Positions 2,669 to 57,235 of a stretch of DNA of 64,000 nucleotides are shown here, one piece after another. Both the position numbers and the translations under genes were made by a program. Each line of letters begins with the position of its first letter. The first letter of the stretch is position 1. The stretch is taken from NCBI GenBank assembly GCA_002840435.1, contig PHAT01000010.1:26393-90392 (forward strand), in the 5' to 3' direction. The DNA is from Deltaproteobacteria bacterium HGW-Deltaproteobacteria-6. Its GTDB lineage: Bacteria; Desulfobacterota; Syntrophia; Syntrophales; Smithellaceae. The notes beneath the pieces were generated by a model, which ran no database searches, had not been told where the DNA came from, and was given only the letters and a program-made list of their open reading frames with translations.

Positions 2669-5600
2669 TCATTTAACCTCTGGTGGATTCACATGACTTT
2701 CACCGGTCGATTTCGGGTTCCTTTTAGCAAAAAACTTTTCGAACATAGTAAAAAAGGAGCTTTGATCTTTCGTGCCGTCCGGTTTCTGTTTTTGCCTTTT
2801 TCCGAAGAGCTTTTCAATCAGGACAAAGAATAAGGGTGAAAAAATAACCACCAGGACCGTGGCGCTTATCATGCCTCCCAGCACGCTCGTTCCGATGGCA
2901 TTCTGGGCCCCGGCGCCTGCACCCGTAGTGAGTGCCAGGGGCAGAACCCCGAAACCGAAGGCGAGCGATGTCATGAGAATCGGTCGGAATCTGAGTTTTG
3001 CTCCCTCAATTGTGGCTTCGATAAGCTCCATGCCCCTTTCCTCAACGCCGCTCTTGGCGAACTGGGCGATCAGAATGGCGTTCTTGGTGGCGAGCCCCAG
3101 CGTGGTGAGCAGGCCGATCTGGAAATAGACGTCATTGGCCAGTCCTCTCATACTTGAAGAGATGACACCGCCGATGACCCCCAGTGGCAGCATAAGCAGG
3201 ATGGCGATGGGGATGGTCCAGCTCTCGTAAAGCGCGGCCAGACACAAAAAGATCACGAAAATGGAAAAGGCATACAAAAGCGGCGCCTGGGAGCTGGCCA
3301 TCCGCTCCTGGTAGGAAAGTCCGCTCCAGTCAAAACCGAAACCGCTGGGAAGCTTTCCCATCGCTTCTTCCATGGCCTGCATGGCTTCGCCTGAACTTTT
3401 GCCGGGCGCGGGTTCTCCCCAGATGTTGATGGAGGGAAATCCGTTAAAGCGCGTCAGTCTGGGAGATCCGGACGTCCAGCGACCCGCGGCAAACGAAGAA
3501 AAGGGGACCATCGTGCCCGATTTATTGCGAACGTAAAGTTTTTCCAGATCCTTGGGCAGCATACGGAAGCGGGCATCCGCCTGTATGTATACCCTTTTGA
3601 TGCGGCCGCCCTGAACGAAGTCGTTGGCATAGGCGCTGCCGAAGGCCGCTGAAAGCGTGTTATGGATAGAGGTAATGGGAATTCCGAGGGCGCCGGCTTT
3701 CGCCCAGTCCACATCGATGCGGTACTGGGGGACATCCGCCATGCTGTTGGGCCGGACTTTGATGACCCTCTCATCCCTGGCCATGAGTCCGAGCAGCTGA
3801 TATTGTCCGTCCATCAGGGCCTGATGACCCAGACCCCCGCGGTCCAGCAGCTGAAAGTCGAATCCCATGGACATGCCCAGTTCAGGAACAGGCGGCGGCT
3901 GGAAAGCGAACACCATGGCGTTGCGGTAACCGGAAAAGGTTTTCATGGCTCTTCCCACGATGGCCTTGGCTTTCAAATCAGCCCGGCCCCGCAAATGCCA
4001 GTCCTTGAGCCTGATCCAGACCATTCCGTTGTTCTGCGCCCGCCCCGAAAATCCGATACCGGTAATGGCCATCACCATTTCCACTGCTTCTTTTTCGTTT
4101 TCATTAAAATACTTTTCAATTTGTTTCGTGAGCTCTCCGGTCTGTTCCAGGGTCGTACCGGTGGGCATGATGACCTGGGCCAGCAGGATTCCCTGGTCTT
4201 CATCCGGAAGATAAGCGGTGGGCATGCGCAGAAACAGGACGCCCATGATCACGACAATTACGAGAAAGACGACCAGATAGCGTTTCTTCCTGGAGAGGGA
4301 ATGGCCGATCAGTTGCACGTAACGGTCCCGAAAACCGAAAAAAGCGCGATCAAACCACCGGAAAAAAGGCTTCATGAAAAAAATGGCATTTTCCGCCGGT
4401 TGATGTCCGGCTTTCACCGGTTTGAGGAGCGCGGCGCACAAAACCGGCGTCAGGATCAAGGCCACAACCACTGAAAGAAGCATTGCTGAAATAATCGTAA
4501 TGGAAAACTGGCGGTAGATGACGCCGGTTGAACCCGGGAAGAAGGCCATAGGGCCGAAAACGGCGGAGAGCACCAGTCCGATGCCGATGAGCGCGCTTGT
4601 GATCTGTTCCATGGACTTTGCGGTGGCTTCTTTGGGTGGAAGTCCTTCTTCGGCCATGATCCGTTCCACGTTTTCCACCACTACGATGGCGTCATCCACC
4701 AGAAGTCCGATGGCCAGCACCATGGCAAACATCGTCAGCATGTTGATCGAGAATCCAAAGAGGCCCAAAATAGCGAAAGTTCCCAGAAGCACCACCGGCA
4801 CGGCGATCGTGGGAATCAGGGTGGCCCGCATGTTGCCCAGGAAAAGCCACATCACCAGGAAGACCAGCACGATGGCGATGAACAGAGTCTTGATCACTTC
4901 ATCGATGGAGACTTTGATGAATTTGGTCGAGTCACTGGGATAGACGACTTTTAATCCGGCGGGGAAAAACCGGCTCATCTCCGCCATTTTTGCTTTTACC
5001 GCATCAGCCGTATCCAGGGCGTTGGCGTCCGGAGACTGCCGGATAGCGATGCCCGCGGCAGGTCTGCCGTTGTTGGAAACCTGGATATCGTAAATCTCAG
5101 TGCCCAGTTCGGTTCGTCCGACATCGCTGATTCGCACAATGGAGCCGTCCGGATTGGTGCGAAGAGGAATGGCCGCGAATTCTTCCGGCGTGGAAAGCAT
5201 ATTCTGAACGATGATGGAGGCATTTAAACGCTGGCCGGGAACGGCGGGCGCCCCGCCGAACTGGCCTGCGGAAACCTCCACATTATAGGCTTTGAGTGCG
5301 GCCAGCACATCCTCCATGGTCATGTTGTAAACCGTCAGGCGTTCCGGGTTAAGCCAGACGCGCATGGCATAGCCGCCTCCGAAAACTTCCACCTCACCAA
5401 CGCCGGGGACGCGCGCCAGAATTTTTTCCAGATTGGATTTGGCATAGTCTCTCAGATCCGTACCGTCCATGGAGCCGTCTTCCGAAACCAGGCCGACAAA
5501 CAAAAGATAGTTCCGGGTGGACTTGGAGACCTGAACGCCCTGACTCTCCACCACATCGGGGAGGTTCGTCATGGCGGATTGAACTTTGTTTTGCACCTTG

Positions 5601-24434: not shown

Positions 24435-24935
24435 TCAAATCTTACCGATTTGAAAACCTTCCAGCTTAATGGCCACGGAGCGCTGCATCAGATCGATGGA
24501 AATAACGAAGAGTTCCTTTTCCGGATCGCTTTTAATGACCGTGCCCTCAATGCCGGCAAAGGGTCCATCCATAATCCGCGCCGGTTCGCCCAATTTAGGA
24601 TACTGGATGGCGAACATTTCCACTTTTTTATCCACGATGCGTTGGAGAGCGATAATTTTTTCTTCCGGTATCGGCAGAGGTTCCGCATTTTCCTTTTTTC
24701 CCAGAATTCGAACAACACCGGTTGTTTTCAGGATGACCAGTTTGGTTTCGTTATCCAAAGAGGCTTCAACAAACAGATAGCCGGGGAAGAGCGGCACACT
24801 AATCTTCTTTTTTCGGTCTTTTCGCTTGCTCCATACTTCCATCTCCGGTAAAAACGTTGTCAGATTTTTTTGGGAGAGTCCGGTGAGGGCTTTATATTCG
24901 TGACGGCTTTTAGTGGAAATTGCATACCATGGCAT
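24435..24935 (-). CDS. NusG-family paralog (RfaH/UpxY-like specialised antiterminator)
   Basis: It has an NGN domain (WYAISTKSRHEYKA...PLFPGYLFVEA) and a KOW motif (GEPARIMDGPFAGIEGTV). The start was placed at ATG 24935 (MPWYAI..); the 68-codon upstream extension was rejected. It is not in a secE-nusG-rplK context. Confidence 0.8.
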   Translation of the reverse strand: MPWYAISTKSRHEYKALTGLSQKNLTTFLPEMEVWSKRKDRKKKISVPLFPGYLFVEASLDNETKLVILKTTGVVRILGKKENAEPLPIPEEKIIALQRIVDKKVEMFAIQYPKLGEPARIMDGPFAGIEGTVIKSDPEKELFVISIDLMQRSVAIKLEGFQIGKI

Positions 24936-25027
24936 GGCCAAGCACCAACCTTTAATATGTTGAGAATCCGTTTCGTAAAGTTTGAGGACATTTACAATAG
25001 CTATTAAGTTTTTGCAATGGAGAAAAA

Positions 25028-26647
25028 ATGCGAGTAATCCGTCTGAATGGTTTGCAACTGAATTTAGATGATACCGGGGAATGCCTCGCCCGAAAAGCAG
25101 CTGACGCGTTGGGCATTCAGACGGCCGATATTGCTTCATTGACAGTGATCAAAAAAGCGCTGGATGCCAGGCGCAACAAGCCTCCGCATTTTGTTTACGC
25201 CGTTAAAATCAGTTTGGCTGACACGGTGATTCTGCGGGAAAAGATGCCGGACGGAATACAGATCCAGCCTTTTAATGATGAACCGGACCTTGAGACGCCC
25301 TTGGCCGGTCCACCACGCAGATTGTCAGGGAGACTTCCCGTTGTGGTCATCGGGAGCGGCCCCGCCGGTCTTTTTGCTGCCTACACGCTTGCCGTAAGCG
25401 GACTATCCGTTCTGCTTCTGGAGAGGGGGCGGCCTGTTGAAAAACGCGTAGCGGATGTGCGGGCATTCTGGAAAGAAGGTGTGCTTGATCCGCAAAGCAA
25501 CGTTCTTTTCGGTGAAGGAGGCGCCGGGACTTTTTCCGACGGAAAACTAACCAGCCGGACGAAGAATCCTTATGCGGGCTGGGTGAAGAAAGTACTGGTG
25601 GAAATGGGCTCGCCCGAAGCCATTCTGACGGACGCCAAGGCGCATATCGGAACGGATAAACTCCGTGAAGTCATCATTCACTTGAGAAATAAGTTAAGAG
25701 AACTGGGTTGTGTCGTTCAATTTGAAGCCCTGGTCACCGACATCATAATCCGGCATAACGAAATCGCGGCAATTATTGTCAACGGCCGGCAGGAAATAAA
25801 AACGGATAAAGCGATTCTGGCGATCGGCCAGAGCGCCGATGACACCTACCGGATGCTGCATGAACGCGGCGTAAAAATGGAGGCCAAACCGTTTGCGATG
25901 GGGTTGCGCGTCGAACATCCGCAGAGCCTGATTAATTCCATGCAATACGGCCGGTGGTCGAAGCATCCTCATTTGCCGCCGGCGGAATATTTTGTCACCG
26001 CCGCCATCAGTAAATTGAATCGCTCCGTTTATACATTTTGCATGTGCCCGGGAGGGCAGGTGATTGGCTGCAGCGCGTTTCCAGGATTTATTATTACCAA
26101 CGGCATGAGCAACAGCGAGCGCAACGGAGAATTTGCCAACAGCGCCGTCGTTGCCAATGTCCGTGTTGAAGACTTTGCTTTGGAGAACGAGCCTTTGAGC
26201 GGTCTGGCCTTTCGCAGCTTGTGGGAGAGCAGGGCTTTTGAGGCAGGCGGTGGCAACTATTGCGCTCCCGCTCAGCAGCTTTCCGAGTTTGTCGAAAATA
26301 AATCATCCGGGGTTGTCGGCCGGACCAGTTTTTTGCCCGGCGTCAAGGCCGCAAAACTTGCTGACGTGCTGCCGGAATTTGTTGCCGATGCTTTGCGGGT
26401 TGGGATAAAACAGTTCGATAAGAAAATGCCCGGTTTTATTTCGCCTGATGCTCATTTAATCGGTGTGGAGACCAGAACGTCGTCGCCTTTGCGGATTTGC
26501 CGCGAATCCGATTCTCAGAGCCTGAATGTCCGGGGACTATACCCCTGCGGGGAAGGTGCCGGTTACGCCGGAGGAATTATCAGTTCGGCGCTGGATGGTG
26601 TTAAGGCTGCAAAGAACGTGATGGCATCAATACGCGGCTGTCCATGA
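25028..26647 (+). CDS. FAD-dependent oxidoreductase (COG2509-like uncharacterised dehydrogenase)
   Basis: It has an N-terminal small domain (MRVIRLNGLQLNLDD...KALDARRNKPPHFVY), the dinucleotide motif VVVIGSGPAGLFAA, and a C-terminal GEGAGYAGGI. Confidence 0.75.
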   Translation: MRVIRLNGLQLNLDDTGECLARKAADALGIQTADIASLTVIKKALDARRNKPPHFVYAVKISLADTVILREKMPDGIQIQPFNDEPDLETPLAGPPRRLSGRLPVVVIGSGPAGLFAAYTLAVSGLSVLLLERGRPVEKRVADVRAFWKEGVLDPQSNVLFGEGGAGTFSDGKLTSRTKNPYAGWVKKVLVEMGSPEAILTDAKAHIGTDKLREVIIHLRNKLRELGCVVQFEALVTDIIIRHNEIAAIIVNGRQEIKTDKAILAIGQSADDTYRMLHERGVKMEAKPFAMGLRVEHPQSLINSMQYGRWSKHPHLPPAEYFVTAAISKLNRSVYTFCMCPGGQVIGCSAFPGFIITNGMSNSERNGEFANSAVVANVRVEDFALENEPLSGLAFRSLWESRAFEAGGGNYCAPAQQLSEFVENKSSGVVGRTSFLPGVKAAKLADVLPEFVADALRVGIKQFDKKMPGFISPDAHLIGVETRTSSPLRICRESDSQSLNVRGLYPCGEGAGYAGGIISSALDGVKAAKNVMASIRGCP

Positions 26648-27710
26648 TTACATCCGCGCCTTTTCTTGCAACGCGTTTCACGGATAATAATTTTGCTTCT
26701 TTAAGATCGCGTATGTTGAGATCGCCTATTGCTTCTATGCCTTTGCCGATGATTTTCGGAGCAATGATCGTGACCAGGCGATTAACCAGATTGTCTTGAA
26801 GGGCAGTTGTAATGATTTGCGCGCCGCCTTCGATCAAGACGGAAGAGATATTTCTGGCGGCAAGAATCTTCAAGAGTTTTTTCAGATGGATACGATTATT
26901 GTCATCAGAATCAACTGTGACCAATTCCGCGCCTGCCGCCGTCAGCTTCTGGAAATATGGATCGGAAGCAGTCTTCGTCGTGACGATCAGAGTCGGTGTC
27001 CGGGAAAGATCTTGCATGATGTTGCTTGAGGTGGTGATGGTCAAACCGGAATCCACGACAACTCTCAGCGGATTGCGACCGTGAACTCTCCTGACCGTCA
27101 GCGTCGGGTTATCTTTCAGAACGGTTCCGATTCCGACCAGTATCGCGTCATGTTGAGCCCGCAGTTGATGAGCAAATTTCAGGGATGCGGGAGAACTGAT
27201 CCATTGCGATTGTCCGGTTGCCGTGGCGATGCGCCCATCCAGCGTTTGTGCGTATTTGACGGTCACAAAAGGCATTCCGGTCTCCATATAATGAAAGAAG
27301 ACTTCATTAAGATTGCGGCATTCATCTTCCATTACACCGGTTGCAATTTCAATTCCTGCGCGTTTCAGGCGGTTCACGCCCTGACAGGAGACCAGCGGGT
27401 TGGAATCAGTCGTGCCGATTACAACCCGCGCGATTTTATGCCGGATAATGAGATCCGTACAAGGGGGTGTTTTGCCATGGTGGCAGCAGGGTTCCAGCGT
27501 CACATAGAGCGTGGAACCGGCGACATCTTCCGTTGCGCTTTGAATCGCATTGACTTCCGCGTGATTCTGACCGCAGCATTGATGATACCCCTGGCCGACG
27601 ATTCGTTCATTCTTGACCAGAACGGCGCCGACCATCGGATTGGGGCTGGCGTAGCCACTGCCCTTGGCGGCCAGTTTTATGGCCAGTTTCATATAGTGTT
27701 CATCATCCAT
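26601..27710 (-). CDS. ribD: bifunctional riboflavin biosynthesis deaminase/reductase
   Basis: It has the CMP/dCMP deaminase zinc motif (HAEVNAI...TLEPCCHHGKTPPC) followed by a RibD C-terminal reductase domain (YAQTLDGRIA). Confidence 0.95.
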   Translation of the reverse strand: MDDEHYMKLAIKLAAKGSGYASPNPMVGAVLVKNERIVGQGYHQCCGQNHAEVNAIQSATEDVAGSTLYVTLEPCCHHGKTPPCTDLIIRHKIARVVIGTTDSNPLVSCQGVNRLKRAGIEIATGVMEDECRNLNEVFFHYMETGMPFVTVKYAQTLDGRIATATGQSQWISSPASLKFAHQLRAQHDAILVGIGTVLKDNPTLTVRRVHGRNPLRVVVDSGLTITTSSNIMQDLSRTPTLIVTTKTASDPYFQKLTAAGAELVTVDSDDNNRIHLKKLLKILAARNISSVLIEGGAQIITTALQDNLVNRLVTIIAPKIIGKGIEAIGDLNIRDLKEAKLLSVKRVARKGADVIMDSRVLMPSRSLQP

Positions 27711-27858
27711 GGTGATTTTATTACCTCATTGACCAAACCAATGCAAAGAAATTTATTGTTGATGCCCTTACTGTTATGTTAAGACGTCACTAAAGTACCG
27801 GCGCCGCGAATTTCGCAAGAAATGATCATTTTTGGTGATTAGAATCACAATATTGCTA

Positions 27859-27886
27859 TTGACTTCTGCCGAAAAAAAAATATGAT
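27859..27886 (+). promoter_or_regulatory. sigma70-type promoter candidate for the riboswitch-pilD transcript
   Basis: It has TTGACT (27859-27864), a 16-nt spacer, and TATGAT (27881-27886), immediately 5' of the GEMM-I-like element. Confidence 0.45.
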
Positions 27887-27892
27887 GTGCAT

Positions 27893-27990
27893 CCAAGCTG
27901 AAAAGGGCAAACCATCTGAAAAGGCGGGACGCAAAGTTACTGGCCTAAGTCTTTGAAAGGATAAGGCGGCAGGGCTGCGGGGCTGTTCGA
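27893..27990 (+). promoter_or_regulatory. c-di-GMP-I (GEMM-I) riboswitch aptamer candidate
   Basis: The sequence AAAAGGGCAAACCATCTGAAAAGGCGGGACGCAAAGTTACTGGCCTAAGTCTTTGAAAGGATAAGGCGGCAGGGCTGCGGGGCTG matches the Vc2-type core blocks in order. These are GGGCAAACC, a GAAA-capped hairpin, GGGACGCAAAG, a CCUAAG/UAAGG tetraloop-receptor-like helix, and GCGGGG. It lies about 67 nt upstream of the pilD ATG. Confidence 0.8.
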
Positions 27991-28057
27991 AAAAAGTCCG
28001 GTATTCCTGAACAAATCACATTGATATAAAGAAATTACAATTAAAAAAAGGTTTGCC

Positions 28058-28828
28058 ATGGTTTTGTTTCTTTATTGTCTTATCTTCATTTTCGGCGCCG
28101 TCATCGGCAGTTTCCTCAATGTCTGCATCTTTCGCATACCGGCTGAGGAATCCATTGTCAGACCTCTTTCCCGGTGCCCCGCCTGTCACCACCCGATTCG
28201 CTTTTATGACAATATCCCGATCATCAGTTTTATCCTTCTCCGCGCCAGATGCCGGGACTGCGGTGAAAAGATTTCATGGCGCTACCCGATGGTGGAGTTG
28301 ATTACCGGCCTTCTGGCCTTGTTGCTGTTCATGAAATACGGCCTCACGCTCATTTTCCTCGTTTACTTTATTTTTACCGCAGTTTTGATTATCATCAGCT
28401 TCATCGATCTGGATCATCAGATTATTCCTGATATCTTATCCTTACCCGGCATCCCCGTCTTTTTCATTTTAGCTGTGTTTGTTGTGAAAGTGCCCTGGAT
28501 GGAGGCGGCAATCGGTCTGCTAGTCGGCGGTGGTGTCCTTTTTACCATTGCCTTTGTTTATGAGTTGATAACCAAGCGCGAAGGAATGGGCGGCGGTGAC
28601 ATTAAATTGCTGGGCATGATTGGCGGATTTTTAGGATGGAAATCGTTGATTTTCATTTTGCTGGTCAGTTCTCTGCTGGGAGCAGTGGTAGGCATTGCCG
28701 TTATGGTGATAAAAAAACAGGATATGAAATATGCTGTTCCCTTCGGGCCGTTTTTGTCGGCGGCGGCAGTCGCCTATCTGTTTTTTGGCGATGTTTTTAT
28801 GAGATTCCTCTTGTGGCCGCAATATTAA
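28058..28828 (+). CDS. pilD: prepilin peptidase / N-methyltransferase (A24 family)
   Basis: The N-terminal CPACHH...CRDCGEKI zinc motif is present, along with the two catalytic Asp contexts (FIDLDHQIIPD and GGGDIKLLG) and about 8 TM helices. Confidence 0.9.
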   Translation: MVLFLYCLIFIFGAVIGSFLNVCIFRIPAEESIVRPLSRCPACHHPIRFYDNIPIISFILLRARCRDCGEKISWRYPMVELITGLLALLLFMKYGLTLIFLVYFIFTAVLIIISFIDLDHQIIPDILSLPGIPVFFILAVFVVKVPWMEAAIGLLVGGGVLFTIAFVYELITKREGMGGGDIKLLGMIGGFLGWKSLIFILLVSSLLGAVVGIAVMVIKKQDMKYAVPFGPFLSAAAVAYLFFGDVFMRFLLWPQY

Positions 28829-28992
28829 AATGGACGGTGAAAATAACCGGCGAATATGTTTAAATCACCAAATTGGATAATAATGTTTTAACACAGAGAA
28901 AATTGACAGGAGAGATGATTAAGCGTAATATGCTGTTATGAAAAATAATATGTATCGTTTCGTGATAATAGATTAATAGAGACGTTACATAA

Positions 28993-29008
28993 TGGCATGT
29001 GTCTTGCG
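28993..29008 (+). promoter_or_regulatory. sigma54-type (-24/-12) promoter candidate for the minor-pilin operon
   Basis: TGGCAT-gtgtc-TTGCg has the GG and GC dinucleotides spaced exactly GG-N10-GC. It lies about 42 nt upstream of the first pilin-like gene, and an AT-rich region upstream could bend or bind IHF. Confidence 0.55.
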
Positions 29009-29049
29009 GGACCTACAACCTTGAAAGTTAATTGGTCTAGGGGTTAATT

Positions 29050-29532
29050 TTGCAATTAAATACTAAAAAAGGCTTCAGCTTAGTTGAATTGATGGTTGTG
29101 ATAGGCATCGTCGGGGTGCTGTTGTCAGTAGCCGTTTTTAACTTGCAACGTTACACCAATAACACCAACCTTAAAAATATGGCAAGAGATATCGCATCCG
29201 ATTATCAGAAATGTAAAGCGAAGGCAGTTTCAGAGAGCAGGATTTACTATATGGTCTTTTCCGCCGGAACCAGCAGCAGATATTGGATTTATTCACTGGC
29301 AACGGCTTCACATCCCCTCGTGTTGACGCAAAAGTTATCGAGCGACTACGGCAGCAGCATTCAGATACAGTCAGCCAGTTTTACCGGAGGGCCATGGGTA
29401 AACTGGATCCAGTTTGAAACCCGTGGAACGAGTTCCACGGGGACAGTCGTATTGACCAACTCAATCGCATCAAAGGCAACCATTAAGTCCAATGTTACAG
29501 GTAAAGCCTATGTTACGTTTGATATGAAATAA
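29050..29532 (+). CDS. type IV minor pilin / pseudopilin, GspH/FimT-FimU-like
   Basis: It has a class III signal (MQLNTKKG|FSLVELMVVIGIVGVLL) with Glu at +5. The product is 160 aa, with a TTG start preceded by AGGGG. Confidence 0.75.
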   Translation: MQLNTKKGFSLVELMVVIGIVGVLLSVAVFNLQRYTNNTNLKNMARDIASDYQKCKAKAVSESRIYYMVFSAGTSSRYWIYSLATASHPLVLTQKLSSDYGSSIQIQSASFTGGPWVNWIQFETRGTSSTGTVVLTNSIASKATIKSNVTGKAYVTFDMK

Positions 29533-29576: not shown

Positions 29577-30032
29577 ATGGTACGGTTGGTACAAAATAAA
29601 AAAGGTCTGGGGATGCTGGAAGTGGTCATGGCCATGTTTCTGACGGTTGTAGCCGTACTGGCCGTATTCTCACTGGTTTCTCCGGCCTGGAAGAATGCTG
29701 CGAAATCAGACTTTATGGGCAGAGCATCGGGAATATTGTATGAACAGCTGGTGAGGCAGGAAGCGAGGCTCATGAATCCCTGCTGCAGCGTTACGACAGG
29801 CACTTTAACACCGGTCGTGGTTAACGCCAGCGGCCAAGGGGTTGCTCAGTCCGGCGACGCTCAGTTTACTGTCACCGGCTCGATCACCAGCCTGGCAACG
29901 AATGTATGGAGAGTTACCTTGCGCGTAGCCTGGACAGGCCATACAGGGATTTCGGAAAGCCTGGTCGTCACGAGGCAGGATGGCTTCACTTTCCCTGCCG
30001 GATGCGCCACGGGGGGGAGTGCCTGCCAATGA
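29577..30032 (+). CDS. type IV minor pilin, PilV-like
   Basis: It has a prepilin-type leader (NKKG|LGMLEVVMAMFLTVV) with Glu at +5. The 151-aa product is second in the fimT-pilVWXY1-like order. Confidence 0.65.
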   Translation: MVRLVQNKKGLGMLEVVMAMFLTVVAVLAVFSLVSPAWKNAAKSDFMGRASGILYEQLVRQEARLMNPCCSVTTGTLTPVVVNASGQGVAQSGDAQFTVTGSITSLATNVWRVTLRVAWTGHTGISESLVVTRQDGFTFPAGCATGGSACQ

Positions 30033-30736
30033 AAAACGACAAAGGATTCACGCTGGTGGAGTTAATGATTGCCATGGCCGTAAGCATGTTTATTCTCGCG
30101 GCCGTCTACGTAGCGGTCAATTCCACGCAGCGTCATTCCACCAACATCGAACGGAAAGTGACGGCCCAGCAGGACGTGAAACCTGCTTTGGACATCATGG
30201 CTCTGGAGATTGGAATGGCCTCCTATAATCCGACAATCGCCACTGGTCTCTGGGTTGTTCCCTCCGGCACCTGTTTGGGCACCGCGGCTAATCAGACCTA
30301 TCGCGGTATTCAGGAGGCAACAGCCAACTCCCTTGTTGTTGAAATGGATATCAGTGATGGCAGCGGCGGTGATGGTGACGGCATGCTGGGTGATGCCAAT
30401 GAAGTTATCCGTTATGCCTACGATACGGGCAATCAATATATCACCAGGGAGACGAGTTGCGGAGGCGGACAGCCCTTCCTGGGCGACACGGTTGCCGGCC
30501 GGAAAACCATCCGGGTTATTAACGGCACTCTGGGCATTCCCGTTTTCCGGTATTTTAACGGCGCGGGGGCGGAAATTGCAGTAAGCGGCACCAACCTCGG
30601 CGGGCTTATCCCGAACATCCGCCGGATCGAGATTGTGCTGGCGGTAGAAACAGAAGGCGTTGATGTCACTACCGGTCAGAGCAAAAGACTCATCTATTCC
30701 ACAAGCGTCATACCGAGGAATCATGCAATACAGTAA
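30029..30736 (+). CDS. type IV minor pilin, PilW-like
   Basis: The leader is MKNDKG|FTLVELMIAMAVSMFIL. Its ATG overlaps the pilV-like stop (ATGA). The upstream extension in the ORF track was rejected. Confidence 0.7.
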   Translation: MKNDKGFTLVELMIAMAVSMFILAAVYVAVNSTQRHSTNIERKVTAQQDVKPALDIMALEIGMASYNPTIATGLWVVPSGTCLGTAANQTYRGIQEATANSLVVEMDISDGSGGDGDGMLGDANEVIRYAYDTGNQYITRETSCGGGQPFLGDTVAGRKTIRVINGTLGIPVFRYFNGAGAEIAVSGTNLGGLIPNIRRIEIVLAVETEGVDVTTGQSKRLIYSTSVIPRNHAIQ

Positions 30737-31202
30737 ACGAGTGCTATCATCGGAAAAGGGGTTTATCCTGGTCACGGCGGTTTTAGCCTGCATGATCCTT
30801 TTGGCCATTACCATAATGATTATCAATATTACAACCAGCGATCTGCAGGTCAGTATCCAGAACGTGGGCCAGAAGAAGGCCTTAACCGCCGCGGAGACGG
30901 GAATTCACCGGATGATGCAGAGTTTCGATCCCCAGAATATGGCGGCATCGGCCGTCACCGGGGTTCAGGTGGATTCAGCCAATGATCCCAATTCCGTCTA
31001 TACCATCTCTACGCCCACCATGCCTACGGGCGGCCCGGAATTTCTGCCCCTGACCGGCTACGCTATCGGCGGCGGCCAGCAATGGGGACAGCGACGCTAT
31101 AATGTCGATGTCACGGGCATTAACACGCAATATAGCACAAGAGTCACCATAGGAGTGGGCATCGGTTACGGTCCCATAGAAATTTCAACGATGATGCGTT
31201 AA
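30723..31202 (+). CDS. PilX-like minor pilin (PilX N-terminal type, no Glu+5)
   Basis: The N-terminus SSEKGFILVTAVLACMILLAITIMIIN resembles the PilX N-terminal domain. The gene overlaps the 3' end of the pilW-like gene and precedes the pilY1-like gene. Confidence 0.6.
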   Translation: MQYSKRVLSSEKGFILVTAVLACMILLAITIMIINITTSDLQVSIQNVGQKKALTAAETGIHRMMQSFDPQNMAASAVTGVQVDSANDPNSVYTISTPTMPTGGPEFLPLTGYAIGGGQQWGQRRYNVDVTGINTQYSTRVTIGVGIGYGPIEISTMMR

Positions 31203-31211
31203 GGAGGTTCT

Positions 31212-34200
31212 ATGAAACCGCGAAGATTCATTTCCCTGATATCGGGAATTGCCCTTTTAATGCTTTTCGCCGGTACCGGGAATGCCACGGCGCCCGTATC
31301 GGGAGAAGAGGCCCTTTTTGTTTCGTCCACGCAGCCGGACGCTCTGATTGTATTGGATCTCTCGGGAAGCATGGCATATAATCCGGCGGGTGGATCGGAT
31401 ATATGGGGAAATTCATCGTGTTCCGGGCCTTTTCACTCCAGTTCCGGTGTTGGACATAATGTTGATTGCAGTCGCCTAGCTATCGCCAAACGGGCCATCT
31501 TCAAAATTCTCGATGACACGGGCAACGGCACAATTGACAGCCAGGACGAGGGCAGTTTGGGTATCCGCATGGGTTATATGCGGTTATATGACTGCTGCCG
31601 AAGCTCCGTTTGCGGTGCTACAGACGCTAATTCTGAGGAACACCGGGGGGTTTACAGCTATACTACCGGTTGCAATCAAATCCCCGGCAGCAGCAATAGC
31701 AGAAGGTATATTGGTTCCAAATACAGCCAGATTTATTGCAACAGCAATACGAGTTGCACTGTTTCCAGTACTGGTTCCTATTCAGTGGGCGGGGCCGCGG
31801 CCAGCGGCGGCACACCGGCTGCTGTTGCTTTGCATGAGGCCAAGACCTATCTTGATGTCCATAAGGCGGCCGACGCCGCCGCCGCCTGCCGGAAAAAATT
31901 TGTGATTTTTATTACTGACGGCGCCGACACTTACGTATGCGGCGGCAACGGACAGGAATGCCAGGAAAACCAATATAAGAGGCGTCGGGAAGTCGTTGCC
32001 CGGACTAAGGCGCTAGCCGATGCGGGCTACAAGGTATTTGTCATCGGTTTCGGCGCTGCCATGCCTGACTATCAGGAAAGAACGCTCAACTGGATGGCGT
32101 ATTATGGCGGGACGGACAATCCGAACCAAGCCAATACGGGGAGCGTGACCGGCTTTACACCGGATACGGCTGGAGCCTGCACGGTGGCAACCGATGTTGC
32201 GGATGCCACCTGCGAGGGAAGTAATCAGCCCAATTTCAAAGCCAATACCAACGATCCGGGCTATGCAGCTCTATCCGGCTATGCTTTTTTAGCCGCAGAC
32301 GCCGATCAAGTGTCCACGTCTCTGCAGGCTGCCATCAACATCATCAGGGAAGCCACTTATTCCTTCTCACAGGCCTCGATCCAGTCCTCCCGGACGGCAG
32401 ATGAGAACTTCGTCTATGAAGGATCCTTCCAGCCCATTAACGGCGACCCCTTCTGGTTCGGGCATCTGCGGAAATATGCAATTACCACGGAGGATGTCAA
32501 AAATGCCGCAGGCGTTGTTATCTCACCTGCCGGTTCCGTCGGCGCCATGCTTCTGGATGCGGGAACGGTCCTCCAGTCAACGTCCTATACCAGCAGAAAT
32601 ATTTACACCTGTGTGGGCTGTACCACAACATCGCCGACCACTCTTGCCTCTTACAGCTACACACTGACCGGCTTTTCAACCAGTATTGTCCCGACCTATT
32701 TTGGCCTTACCGACGACACATTCACTTCGCAACGGGATGCCATTGTCGGTTACATTCAGGGAAATGCGACATACAATCCGGACAACTGGAAGCTGGGCGA
32801 TGTTTTCCGATCCACACCCATCACAGTGGGAACGCCGTCGGCTTTTTTTGATGACTTTCGGGATACCAGTTCCAGTTCCGTCACCTGTTGTCCCGACAAC
32901 AGCACCAAAACGGTTAACGCCTTCGGCGCCCATCGCTGCACCCATTGCCGGACTTCGGCTATCGGCAACCGCCTCATCGTCTCGGGGGCAAACGACGGAC
33001 AGTTTCACGCTTTCAAAACCAGTGACATGACGGAAGCCTGGAGCTTTGTTCCCCCTAATCTCCTGTCAAAATTAAAAAATATCACGCATGCGGCGGAGCC
33101 CACTGCTTTGCTCCACCAGTACTTCGTTGATGGTCCCGTTTCCGGCGCCGATGTCTGGCTGGGCAGTGGTACCGGCACGTCCAAATCTGCTGCGGACTGG
33201 AAGACCCTTCTAGTTTTCGGCGAAGGCAGAGGCAGCACGGACCGCCTCTGGAGCTCCGCTGCAGACTGCGCTTCCGGTTTATCCCCGACCTACAGCGCTA
33301 CCTATCCCAATTACTGCGGCTATTATGCCCTTGACCTGAACGATTCGCTGAACCCGAGGTATATGTGGCGTTTGAATGGCTTCGACGCGACGACTCAGGC
33401 GCCCTATATGGGGGAATCCTGGAGCAAGATGTTCATGGGACGCATCCTGACGAAGTCCGGCTCGACCGTGACGGAAAAATGGGTCGGCTTTCTGGGCGCC
33501 GGCTACAATGCAAACGCTTGTCCTTCAAACGGCACCTGTGACGACAAAAGGGGGAAGGGGTTTTATGTCGTGGATTTGAGCAATGGTCAGATCCTGTGGA
33601 GTTTTACCCATACAAGCGACACTGCTTCTAATACCCGGAGCCCGTCAATGAGATACAGCTTTCCGGCGCCGCCTTCCATTGTGGATTCGGATAATGACGG
33701 GTTTATCGATACGGCCTATATCGGCGATCTGGGCGGCAATATGTGGCGCTTTAAATTCTGTACGAGGGCGATGCTTGATGCCGGAAGCTGCGGCACTTCC
33801 GATTGGCAAGGGACGATCTTTGTCGATTCCTCCAGCGGCAGCATCCGGCCGATCCATACCGGCGCCGCCGTTGCGCGTGATGCACTGGGAAACATGTGGG
33901 TTTTCTATGGCACGGGAGATAAAGTTGATCCCACGGCTTCCAACGCCCAGGAGTATTTTTATGCCGTTAAGGATATCGATCGGACATCGACTATCAACGG
34001 CGTTTCCAGCATCGATCAAATCGTCACTGCCAGCCAGGTGTACGACGCAACTAACAAGCCTACAGGGTACCGCATCAGTTTGCCCGGGAGCGGCCAGAAG
34101 ATTCTCGCGGAACCGACCGTATTCGGCGGCGTTGCCTATTTTACGAGCTTTACACCCGGCCAGACAAATGATCCCTGCAATCAGGCAGGCGTCGCATCTC

Positions 34201-34460
34201 TCAACGCGGTCAATTTCACGACAGGCGCAGGAGTCTTTAACACGACGAATCCCCGTCAGATGGATATCGGTACCGGAATCGCCTCGGCGCCCATTCTCTC
34301 TCTGAAACCGACCGGCGTAAGCGGATCGGCCGCAGACCTCTATGTCACGGTCAGCGGCGGGGGGGCCAGTTCGTCCAGCACCCAGAAAATAAATTTCGAT
34401 CCGCCGGGGGTCTCCAACCGCACGAACATGATTTACTGGAAGGACAGGCGTATCGAGTAA
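31212..34460 (+). CDS. PilY1/PilC-like pilus tip adhesin with an N-terminal vWA domain
   Basis: It has a signal peptide, a vWA MIDAS-like VLDLSGSM plus FITDGADT, and a C-terminal beta-propeller region. That region carries the PilY1-type Ca-binding loop DSDNDGFIDTAYIGDLGGNMWRF. The product is 1082 aa. Confidence 0.85.
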   Translation: MKPRRFISLISGIALLMLFAGTGNATAPVSGEEALFVSSTQPDALIVLDLSGSMAYNPAGGSDIWGNSSCSGPFHSSSGVGHNVDCSRLAIAKRAIFKILDDTGNGTIDSQDEGSLGIRMGYMRLYDCCRSSVCGATDANSEEHRGVYSYTTGCNQIPGSSNSRRYIGSKYSQIYCNSNTSCTVSSTGSYSVGGAAASGGTPAAVALHEAKTYLDVHKAADAAAACRKKFVIFITDGADTYVCGGNGQECQENQYKRRREVVARTKALADAGYKVFVIGFGAAMPDYQERTLNWMAYYGGTDNPNQANTGSVTGFTPDTAGACTVATDVADATCEGSNQPNFKANTNDPGYAALSGYAFLAADADQVSTSLQAAINIIREATYSFSQASIQSSRTADENFVYEGSFQPINGDPFWFGHLRKYAITTEDVKNAAGVVISPAGSVGAMLLDAGTVLQSTSYTSRNIYTCVGCTTTSPTTLASYSYTLTGFSTSIVPTYFGLTDDTFTSQRDAIVGYIQGNATYNPDNWKLGDVFRSTPITVGTPSAFFDDFRDTSSSSVTCCPDNSTKTVNAFGAHRCTHCRTSAIGNRLIVSGANDGQFHAFKTSDMTEAWSFVPPNLLSKLKNITHAAEPTALLHQYFVDGPVSGADVWLGSGTGTSKSAADWKTLLVFGEGRGSTDRLWSSAADCASGLSPTYSATYPNYCGYYALDLNDSLNPRYMWRLNGFDATTQAPYMGESWSKMFMGRILTKSGSTVTEKWVGFLGAGYNANACPSNGTCDDKRGKGFYVVDLSNGQILWSFTHTSDTASNTRSPSMRYSFPAPPSIVDSDNDGFIDTAYIGDLGGNMWRFKFCTRAMLDAGSCGTSDWQGTIFVDSSSGSIRPIHTGAAVARDALGNMWVFYGTGDKVDPTASNAQEYFYAVKDIDRTSTINGVSSIDQIVTASQVYDATNKPTGYRISLPGSGQKILAEPTVFGGVAYFTSFTPGQTNDPCNQAGVASLNAVNFTTGAGVFNTTNPRQMDIGTGIASAPILSLKPTGVSGSAADLYVTVSGGGASSSSTQKINFDPPGVSNRTNMIYWKDRRIE

Positions 34461-49406: not shown

Positions 49407-49481
49407 AGGCAAGTAGCTCAGGGGGAGAGCGCCATCCTGACGCGGTGGATGTCCAGGGTTCAAATCCCTGCTTGCCTACCA
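49407..49481 (+). tRNA. tRNA-Val (anticodon GAC), with encoded CCA
   Basis: A manual cloverleaf fold works. The acceptor stem is AGGCAAG/CTTGCCT and the D arm is GCTC-AGGGGGA-GAGC. The anticodon arm is CCATC-CTGACGC-GGTGG and the T arm is CAGGG-TTCAAAT-CCCTG. The discriminator is A, followed by CCA. Confidence 0.9.
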
Positions 49482-56562: not shown

Positions 56563-56901
56563 ATGGATAACATCATTCCCGAAAAGGCTTATTTCCGTAT
56601 TGGAGAAGTGAGCAAAATTCTCAGTGTCGAACCCTATGTTATTCGTTACTGGGAAACGGAATTTAAAACGGTCAAACCGGTACGGACAAAGACGGCTCAG
56701 CGCCTGTACCGGAAAAAAGATGTAGAGGAATTATTAATCATCCGCGAGTTGCTTTATCAGCAGCGTTTCACGATCAGCGGGGCAAAAAAGCAACTGATGA
56801 AAATGCGCGGCGATGAAGAACCGGTGAGTGTATCCGGTCACCATGAAAAATTAACTTTAATTAAAAAAGAATTACAGCAAATCAGAAAGATAATGAGCTA
56901 A
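56563..56901 (+). CDS. MerR-family transcriptional regulator (small, no obvious effector domain)
   Basis: The N-terminal wHTH is YFRIGEVSKILSVEPYVIRYWETEF...RLYRKKDVEELLIIRELL. The product is 112 aa. Confidence 0.85.
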   Translation: MDNIIPEKAYFRIGEVSKILSVEPYVIRYWETEFKTVKPVRTKTAQRLYRKKDVEELLIIRELLYQQRFTISGAKKQLMKMRGDEEPVSVSGHHEKLTLIKKELQQIRKIMS

Positions 56902-56932
56902 AAAGCCGGCAATGATCATTGCCGGCTTTTTA
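56900..56932. terminator. bidirectional rho-independent terminator
   Basis: The sequence aaaaagccggcaatg-at-cattgccggcttttt has a perfect stem with A- and T-runs. It lies between convergent genes. Confidence 0.8.
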
Positions 56933-56953
56933 GCTTTTGAACAGCAGGAATTG

Positions 56954-57235
56954 TTATTTCTTCTTGTTTGCTCTTTTAGAAGCTTTGAGCGGGTTGATCT
57001 TCTGAGTTTCCTTAATTTCAATTTTAACATGTGATGCGGTCGGACAGTTACCGGTCATCCACTTGCTTTTCGGATCCGGATAGACCTTGCAGTATTTCCC
57101 TGTCTCGTATTCGAAAACCTTATTGCAATCCCCGCATTTGTCGATTATCACAACACAACTGCCGCCGAAGAAGCCACAGCCTTTTTTGCTCATGAAAGCG
57201 CATTCCACCCCATTTTTTACTGTCTGGCAAAGCAT
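56954..57235 (-). CDS. PxxKW-family cysteine-rich small protein
   Basis: The 93-aa product has about 10 Cys residues, the motif YPDPKSKW (P-x-x-K-W), and a Lys-rich tail. The family name is recalled from NCBI nomenclature. Confidence 0.6.
   Translation of the reverse strand: MLCQTVKNGVECAFMSKKGCGFFGGSCVVIIDKCGDCNKVFEYETGKYCKVYPDPKSKWMTGNCPTASHVKIEIKETQKINPLKASKRANKKK

Follow-up and report, generated by a model that had tools for sequence, protein, structure and literature searches.

The leader between ribD and pilD

The DNA analyzed here is a 64,000-nt stretch (hereafter the window) of contig PHAT01000010.1 (assembly GCA_002840435.1, positions 26,393 to 90,392) of Deltaproteobacteria bacterium HGW-Deltaproteobacteria-6, a member of the Smithellaceae. 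It contains pilD, the gene for a type IV prepilin leader peptidase/N-methyltransferase, separated from ribD by a gap which a preliminary description of the sequence had given as 347 nt long and as housing a promoter and a class I cyclic di-GMP (c-di-GMP) riboswitch-like leader of the GEMM-I type. The gap (27711-28057) has this length, and the promoter, described as TTGACT-16-TATGAT, is located at 27859-27886. As argued below, the remaining element is likely to be a genuine class I c-di-GMP riboswitch (GEMM-I, RF01051) at the 5′ end of the pilD mRNA, with a switch between ligand binding and a competing hairpin controlling pilD. The genes and features that delimit the locus are:

26601-27710, minus strand: ribD (Pfam RibD_C and deaminase)
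27859-27886, plus strand: sigma-70-type promoter, −35 box TTGACT at 27859-27864, 16-nt spacer, −10 box TATGAT at 27881-27886 (10/12 matches)
27896-27982, plus strand: c-di-GMP-I (GEMM-I) aptamer, RF01051, extending to 27984 with the 3′ strand of helix P1
28058-28828, plus strand: pilD, 256 aa (Pfam A24_N_bact, 4.6e-37; Peptidase_A24, 1.9e-23)

The Rfam covariance models were scanned over the 64-kb window. The RF01051 (c-di-GMP-I) model matches nucleotides 27896-27982 of the plus strand with a score of 72.2 bits (E-value 3.2e-12), about twice the gathering score of 35 bits, and along its whole length (model positions 1-87 of 87). This is the check that had been proposed for the element, which thereby stands; its boundaries, previously set at 27893-27990, do not, the model giving 27896-27982 (27984 when P1 is included). 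Besides RF01051 and a tRNA, no Rfam match in the window reaches its gathering score, and no other riboswitch family was found there even at E-values up to 1. The aptamer lies 3′ of the conserved promoter and ends about 75 nt 5′ of pilD, on the same strand; pilD, with its start ATG at 28058, is the first gene 3′ of it.

To describe the aptamer we used the numbering of the Vibrio cholerae Vc2 riboswitch, taken from PMC6140456 and 10.1101/871194. In Vc2, helix P1 is formed by G9-C13/G94-C97, P3 comprises C51-A91, and the key residues are A18, G20, C46, A47 and C92; G20 reads the G-alpha of the ligand, A47 intercalates between its two guanines and C92 forms a Watson-Crick pair with G-beta (PMC6140456; 10.1101/871194). 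The corresponding parts of the window, all on the plus strand, are:

27896-27899: 5′ strand of P1 (AGCU), pairing with GGCU at 27981-27984 over 4 bp (read from the sequence)
27904-27908: 5′ side of the ligand pocket, with A18 = 27904, G19 = 27905 and G20 = 27906 (alignment to the model)
27905-27913: GGGCAAACC block
27912-27927: P2 hairpin, CCAUCU-GAAA-AGGCGG, with its GAAA tetraloop at 27918-27921 (RF01051 alignment)
27926-27936: GGGACGCAAAG block
27933-27935: AAA junction, with A47 = 27933 (invariant in the 53 orthologous leaders introduced below)
27935-27976: P3 helix, 27935-27945 with 27965-27976, and an inner stem, 27950-27953 with 27958-27961
27944-27949 and 27962-27966: tetraloop receptor within P3, CCUAAG and UAAGG
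27977-27982: GCGGGG
27978-27979: C92 equivalent (C27978) and the C93 position, occupied by G27979

The order of blocks previously read from the sequence is the one that the alignment returns, each block lying where it had been placed. The G-triplet said to contact the ligand is intact, as had been claimed, but only its middle G, G20 (27906), is the contact. The contact bases present in canonical form are A18 (27904), G20 (27906), C46 (27932), A47 (27933) and C92 (27978), and G21/C22 (27907-27908) pair with G45/C46 (27931-27932). P2 contains one A.C mismatch (27914/27925), which is also present in eight relatives, and in some relatives one half of the receptor is the canonical UAUGG. An AAA linker is near-universal in GEMM RNAs, and a GNRA tetraloop such as GAAA on the first hairpin, with an 11-nt receptor in the second, is described for them (PMC1950547). 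By its score, its two covarying hairpins, its tetraloop, receptor and AAA linker, its contact bases and its position 5′ of a pilus gene, a target within the environment/membrane/motility classes, the element is a member of RF01051.

Conservation and ligand specificity at the pilD locus

PilD relatives were retrieved from the genome collection, which gave 81 loci including the window, all of them from Smithella, Smithellaceae or Syntrophales metagenome-assembled genomes (MAGs). A GEMM-I signature is located 150-190 nt 5′ of the pilD start in 53 of the 81 loci, the window among them, whereas in distant Syntrophales loci pilD comes directly after another gene and has no aptamer. When 18 of the leaders with the signature were tested with the Rfam models, all were confirmed, 16 as RF01051 (57.6-79.8 bits) and two as RF03167. 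The 53 distinct orthologous leaders were then aligned (alignment A1), the Rfam structure was projected onto them and pairs were counted explicitly. Over P2 and P3, 96.3% of the cells are paired and nine pairs show compensatory changes; none of 500 shuffles was as high, and slid controls gave 36-50%. Covariation is found in 4/6 pairs of P2 and in 4/10 outer pairs of P3. P1, which reads GCUUG/CGGGC in most relatives, is paired in 86% as against 21-57% in the slid controls. RNAalifold, applied to the unedited MAFFT alignment of the entire leaders, missed P3 and returned a spurious local hairpin; it was replaced by the explicit counts.

The promoter is retained together with the aptamer. Its −35 box TTGACT is kept in about 50 of the 53 leaders at a fixed distance. 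Across the orthologous leaders, 14-21 nt separate the end of the −10 box from G20, which places the predicted transcription start at about 27892-27895, where it abuts P1 on its 5′ side. A fortuitous match to GEMM-I within an AT-rich gap between genes has a negligible probability, and nothing but the general caution that matching blocks by eye can mislead speaks for it; the E-value of 3.2e-12 with full coverage of the model, the compensatory changes across 53 leaders and the fixed placement between promoter and pilD all stand against it.

Several loci depart from this arrangement. In L025 (~3560-3733) the promoter and the block downstream of the aptamer are kept and the aptamer itself is deleted. 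In L001 and L052, which encode the closest PilD proteins (86-89% identity), a small unrelated open reading frame (ORF) upstream of pilD takes the place of the aptamer, and the leader of L008 (18-207) looks degenerate, carrying C46A together with C92U. Judged from these leaders, the aptamer has been lost at the pilD locus in several lineages of the Smithellaceae, by deletion or by replacement.

With respect to the ligand, A47 is invariant (53/53), position 92 is C in 52 of the 53 leaders, and position 20 is G in 49 leaders and A in four. An A at the equivalent of G20 is the hallmark of GEMM-Ib riboswitches, which sense 3′3′-cyclic GMP-AMP (3′3′-cGAMP) or are bispecific. The window has G at this position (G27906) and thus lacks the GEMM-Ib signature. 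Because its contact bases are canonical and GEMM-Ib carries A at position 20, c-di-GMP is favoured over 3′3′-cGAMP as the ligand of the window aptamer; the preliminary description leaned the same way, and G20 (27906), A47 (27933) and C92 (27978) bear it out. Assignment to RF03167 takes the best score within clan CL00126 and at least 59 bits; in the window, RF01051 is retained as the best model.

The orthologous leaders are less uniform in this respect. The four leaders with A at position 20 are those of L026 (1624-1717), L029 (1435-1528), L035 (3823-3914) and L044 (3831-3917), which score 68.6-75.5 bits with RF01051. Two others, L043 (3825-3904) and L065 (3828-3908), have RF03167 (c-di-GMP-I-GGC) as their best match (62.7-64 bits) at the same position 5′ of pilD, and have a short P3 without tetraloop receptor. 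The leader of L046 is close to that of L043, and in both of them P2 carries a GAGA loop. Given the leaders with A20 and those of RF03167 type, specificity would therefore vary at the pilD locus, and it may have shifted among orthologous leaders.

These same leaders are what speaks for the window aptamer itself sensing 3′3′-cGAMP or another cyclic dinucleotide, together with its host, which belongs to the former Deltaproteobacteria as does Geobacter, where GEMM-Ib precedes pilM. For the window we regard this as very improbable, since the window has G20, A47 and C92, and RF01051 outscores the other clan members on it. In GEMM-Ib the G20 equivalent is an adenine (A14 in Gs1761), and wild-type Vc2, with G20, binds cGAMP far more weakly (dissociation constant ~10 uM) than c-di-GMP (picomolar) (PMC6140456).

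Competing hairpin and direction of control

Downstream of the aptamer, the leader contains the following features, all on the plus strand:

27970-28009: competing (anti-aptamer) hairpin, 27970-27984 with 27995-28009 (AGUCCGGUAUUCCUG), from folding and covariation, with no U-tract after it
28010-28047: A-rich, G-poor spacer (family mean 48% A, 17% C, 10% G, 25% U)
28048-28051, 28050-28057 and 28058-28060: ribosome-binding region, consisting of the Shine-Dalgarno-like AAGG, GGUUUGCC and the AUG, respectively

The competing hairpin consumes the 3′ strand of P3, C92 and the 3′ strand of P1. Its distal block, 27995-28009, is conserved across the family with the consensus GUCCAGCAAUCCUGCC. The minimum free energy (MFE) fold of the window leader contains this hairpin and not the aptamer, and the hairpin is likewise the MFE structure when the 3′ region is folded on its own, be it that of the window (−17.7 kcal/mol), of L021 or of L004. 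On alignment A1 it is 78% paired, with nine pairs changed on both sides, the slid controls giving 28-55%. When both folds were enforced in turn, 48 of the 53 leaders favoured the hairpin state over aptamer plus P1 (means of −46.1 and −35.4 kcal/mol, respectively). According to these models, hairpin and aptamer are mutually exclusive, and ligand and tertiary contacts would have to overcome an average gap of ~10 kcal/mol. Binding of c-di-GMP would lock P1 and P3 and block the competing hairpin, which would prevail when ligand is absent. Competing stems that overlap the 3′ side of the second hairpin belong to the original description of GEMM, where ligand-ON control was deduced (PMC1950547), and in the pilM switch of Geobacter, an ON switch, the ligand-pairing C75 is sequestered in a competing hairpin (PMC9262584).

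Two sets of results count against this model, those on P1 in the window and those on the expression platform. G27900, the equivalent of G14, lies opposite G27979/G27980 and is unpaired. C93 is C in 51 of the 53 leaders, the window alone having G (G27979), and one U has been lost from the 5′ strand of P1 in the window. G27979 and the lost U make the G14-C93 closing pair impossible and reduce P1 to 4 bp (27896-27899/27981-27984), one of them a G.U pair, so that affinity for the ligand may be reduced. Four further contigs, which come from four samples and encode an identical PilD, have exactly the same leader with G27979 in it, and this base is therefore probably not an assembly error. A separate scan of metagenome contigs with an exact 18-mer for the G27979 variant gave only chance matches (none of the 80 examined, out of 102, was in an aptamer context). 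In Cd1, the riboswitch of the flagellar operon of Clostridioides difficile, no P1 is detectable and c-di-GMP is nevertheless bound at 0.25 uM (PMC9262584), and by analogy binding by the window aptamer is still plausible despite its weak P1.

The copy in the window might alternatively be decayed or weakened to the point that it does not regulate, pilD being expressed constitutively from the conserved promoter. Such decay would fit the loss of G14-C93 through two changes that are unique to the window, the A.C mismatch in P2 and the repeated loss of the aptamer at this locus (deletion in L025, replacement in L001 and L052, C46A with C92U in L008). Nevertheless, we consider it improbable: the score of 72.2 bits is in the middle of the family range, every direct ligand contact is intact, the same mismatch occurs in eight relatives, Cd1 binds in the sub-micromolar range with no detectable P1, and the leader recurs unchanged in four further contigs.

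As to the platform, it had been stated that no clear intrinsic terminator follows the aptamer, and none was detected on the plus strand between 27983 and 28057. The hairpin is not followed by a U-tract: in the window and in 41 other leaders no run of at least four U lies within 55 nt of the start of its 3′ strand, so that the GC-rich hairpin plus at least 4-5 U of an intrinsic terminator is not found. U-runs do occur after the hairpin in L062, L029, L026 and L012; the terminator scanner calls none of them on the plus strand, and these segments adopt other structures when folded in isolation. Whether the ribosome-binding site (RBS) is masked was evaluated by comparing its accessibility in the free, aptamer-forced and hairpin-forced states. 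Across the family, neither accessibility nor opening energy differs between the two states (p = 0.56 and 0.51), the opening energies being split 13 versus 14 leaders with a median difference of −0.03 kcal/mol. A family-wide search of the leaders found no shared anti-RBS segment.

In the window, GGUUUGCC (28050-28057) is perfectly complementary to GGCAAACC (27906-27913) of the aptamer, and the two are paired in the MFE fold. This pairing exceeds that of shuffled ribosome-binding regions (p = 0.008), but 38% of random 22-mers from the genome and 18 of 85 ORF starts bind the aptamer no less stably than in this duplex (−14.9 kcal/mol), which beyond the window is seen only in a handful of close leaders (L004, L005, L008 and L011). 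A conserved anti-RBS mechanism through GGCAAACC:GGUUUGCC was therefore discarded, as the duplex is unexceptional against the genome and not conserved; it is kept as a weak hint specific to the window. The region of GGUUUGCC is also partly complementary to GGUAUUCCU (28000-28008), within the block that would be released from the hairpin upon ligand binding, so the window RBS is able to pair with that block too. Family-wide, the released block pairs with the real RBSs slightly less than with shuffled ones (p = 0.017), and pairing of the aptamer with the RBS, compared with shuffles, gave no consistent signal either. Because the RBS can pair either with GGCAAACC of the aptamer or with the released block, the direction of control is ambiguous in the window.

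Provided that the switch works, an increase of expression with ligand (ON) is somewhat more likely than a decrease, because the competing-hairpin design matches that of the ligand-ON GEMM RNAs (PMC1950547) and of Geobacter pilM (PMC9262584). The window RBS leans in the same direction, its opening being calculated to cost 6.7 kcal/mol ligand-free and 5.2 kcal/mol bound, i.e., 1.5 kcal/mol more without ligand. The route could be translational in the window, GGCAAACC, once freed, pairing with GGUUUGCC-AUG in the ligand-free state; alternatively, ON control could run through factor-dependent termination or through the stability of the mRNA. High c-di-GMP would then lead to more prepilin processing and pilus priming.

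The same aptamer could instead be an OFF switch in which ligand frees the C-rich block 27995-28009 and pilD expression falls at high c-di-GMP. This may happen by pairing of GGUAUUCCU (28000-28008) with AGGUUUGCC (28049-28057) in the ribosome-binding region, or the freed block and the A/C-rich spacer may act as a Rho loading site. For the first route, block and RBS share 8.7 expected pairs in the aptamer-forced window as against 2.2 for shuffled sites, although family-wide this pairing is below that of the shuffled controls and the window RBS is slightly harder to open ligand-free. For the second route, block and spacer contain little G, and 35 of the 53 leaders have more C than G there; nonetheless it is A (48%) and not C (17%) that predominates in the spacer, which across the family is only ~31 nt long. 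A modest excess of C over G (17% versus 10%) in a short A-rich spacer argues neither for nor against Rho. Among known systems, Vc2, the best-studied of the GEMM-I RNAs that lack a terminator, is described as turning translation OFF, whereas the cyclic-dinucleotide riboswitch on the pilus genes of Geobacter (pilM) is an ON switch (PMC9262584). On balance, OFF control is possible but the less favoured of the two directions.

Three points are unusual here: the platform shows neither a terminator nor masking of the RBS, the G14-C93 pair is missing in the window, and the orthologous leaders differ naturally at the position that governs specificity. That the platform uses a route not yet shown for GEMM-I and, at the same time, that orthologous leaders have changed ligand during the evolution of the Smithellaceae is a speculative proposal, which we deem rather unlikely. 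Candidate routes would be ligand-controlled Rho loading on the released C/A-rich block and, because P1 forms at the predicted transcription start, ligand-controlled protection of the 5′ end of the mRNA.

The regulated unit, known GEMM systems and significance

The regulated unit would be pilD, probably along with the minor-pilin and pilY1 genes behind it:

29050-29532, 29577-30032, 29906-30736 and 30660-31202, plus strand: four minor-pilin-like genes (Pfam N_methyl, PilX_N; no Pfam match for the ORF at 29577-30032)
31212-34460, plus strand: pilY1 (Pfam T4P_PilY1)

The order pilD, minor pilins, pilY1 is kept in most related loci, and in several relatives less than 100 nt separate pilD from the first minor-pilin gene. 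In the window this gap amounts to 221 nt (28829-29049). It was scanned and contains no strong terminator, and read-through from pilD into the minor-pilin/pilY1 genes is plausible on these grounds. Counting against read-through, a promoter-like site (TTGACA-17-TAATAT, 28903-28931, plus strand, 10/12 matches) lies inside the gap, and the minor-pilin/pilY1 genes may have a separate promoter of their own besides any read-through.

In a distant Syntrophales MAG (L070), pilD (590-1363) has no aptamer upstream of it, and a 72.3-bit GEMM-I aptamer (1650-1737) instead follows this gene, ahead of the first minor-pilin gene (2010-2534). By sequence, this pilus cluster is thus a GEMM-I target at a different entry point. 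The relocated aptamer has no clear terminator and does not discriminate between ON and OFF control.

pilY1 is followed by argS and by housekeeping genes, and near the pilD/pilY1 cluster no gene for a GGDEF or EAL protein was found. Elsewhere in the window, a 234-aa ORF (24435-25139, minus strand) has a NusG N-terminal domain and is possibly a specialized NusG paralogue; this ORF and one for an FAD-dependent protein (25028-26647, plus strand) overlap at their 5′ ends by ~110 nt, so that the start codon of one or the other has probably been miscalled. Sub-threshold Rfam matches on both strands at 56863-56979 (Thr_leader, 32-35.5 bits with a gathering score of 55; microRNA models) fall at the 3′ end of the ORF 56563-56901 and most likely reflect a palindromic hairpin or terminator, not a real leader. 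The tRNA gene is at 49407-49478 (plus strand, RF00005, 63.5 bits).

One of the closest known systems is Vc2 (RF01051, 5′ of tfoY/VC1722 in V. cholerae). The window aptamer shares with it the three-helix fold with GAAA docking into an 11-nt-type receptor, the contact bases A18, G20, C46, A47 and C92, a 5-nt junction J1/2 between the G14 equivalent and G20, the lack of an intrinsic terminator, an RBS ~70-100 nt from the aptamer and, probably, the stability of P1 as the switching element. It differs in its target (pilD instead of tfoY), in lacking G14-C93, in the conserved competing hairpin that takes the 3′ strand of P3, C92 and P1, and in that no conserved anti-RBS element was detected. With the GEMM-Ib RNA of Geobacter metallireducens pilM it has in common the GEMM-I fold in a type IV pilus leader of a former deltaproteobacterium and a hairpin that takes up the 3′ strand of the aptamer along with the C that pairs with the ligand (C75 in pilM, C27978 in the window), so that ligand and hairpin would exclude each other. 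The pilM RNA, however, has A at position 20 and senses cGAMP, its hairpin is a Rho-independent terminator (ON) whereas that of the window has no U-tract, and its target is pilM (with pilNOPQ) rather than pilD and minor pilins. Cd1 belongs to the same class, and its sub-micromolar dissociation constant with no detectable P1 bears on the weak P1 of the window; it differs in being a transcriptional OFF switch with a terminator, on flagellar genes, in the Firmicutes.

The original description of GEMM lists cpaA, pilM, pilO, pilQ and pulF as targets, cpaA being a family of prepilin peptidase genes (Weinberg et al. 2007, PMC1950547). The location 5′ of pilus biogenesis genes, the GAAA loop with its 11-nt receptor, the AAA linker and a competing stem over the second hairpin are common to that set and to the window, in which, by contrast, a PilD-type peptidase (A24_N_bact and Peptidase_A24) heads a minor-pilin/pilY1 cluster, the host is one of the Smithellaceae and the competing stem is not a terminator. 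GEMM RNAs on pilus genes, cpaA included, have been known since 2007, the GEMM-Ib switch of Geobacter pilM has been studied in depth (PMC9262584), and knowledge of the class is unchanged by the pilD element. A literature search for riboswitches in Smithella or Syntrophus, or for GEMM together with prepilin peptidase, returned nothing specific.

Smithella-type syntrophs are uncultured degraders of hydrocarbons and fatty acids that live in close physical association with methanogens. In these organisms, the maturation of type IV pilins by PilD, and probably also the priming complex formed of minor pilins and PilY1, would be under direct control of c-di-GMP at the RNA level. This would tie second-messenger signalling, in a concrete way that can be tested, to attachment to other cells or to surfaces in bacteria that are hard to study genetically. 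The 53 leaders are natural variants of one riboswitch at one locus and include variants at the specificity position, deletions and a copy without G14-C93, which would make them useful for studying how affinity and specificity are tuned. If the ligand has indeed changed at the pilD locus, RNA signalling of the cGAMP type would extend beyond Geobacter to syntrophs.

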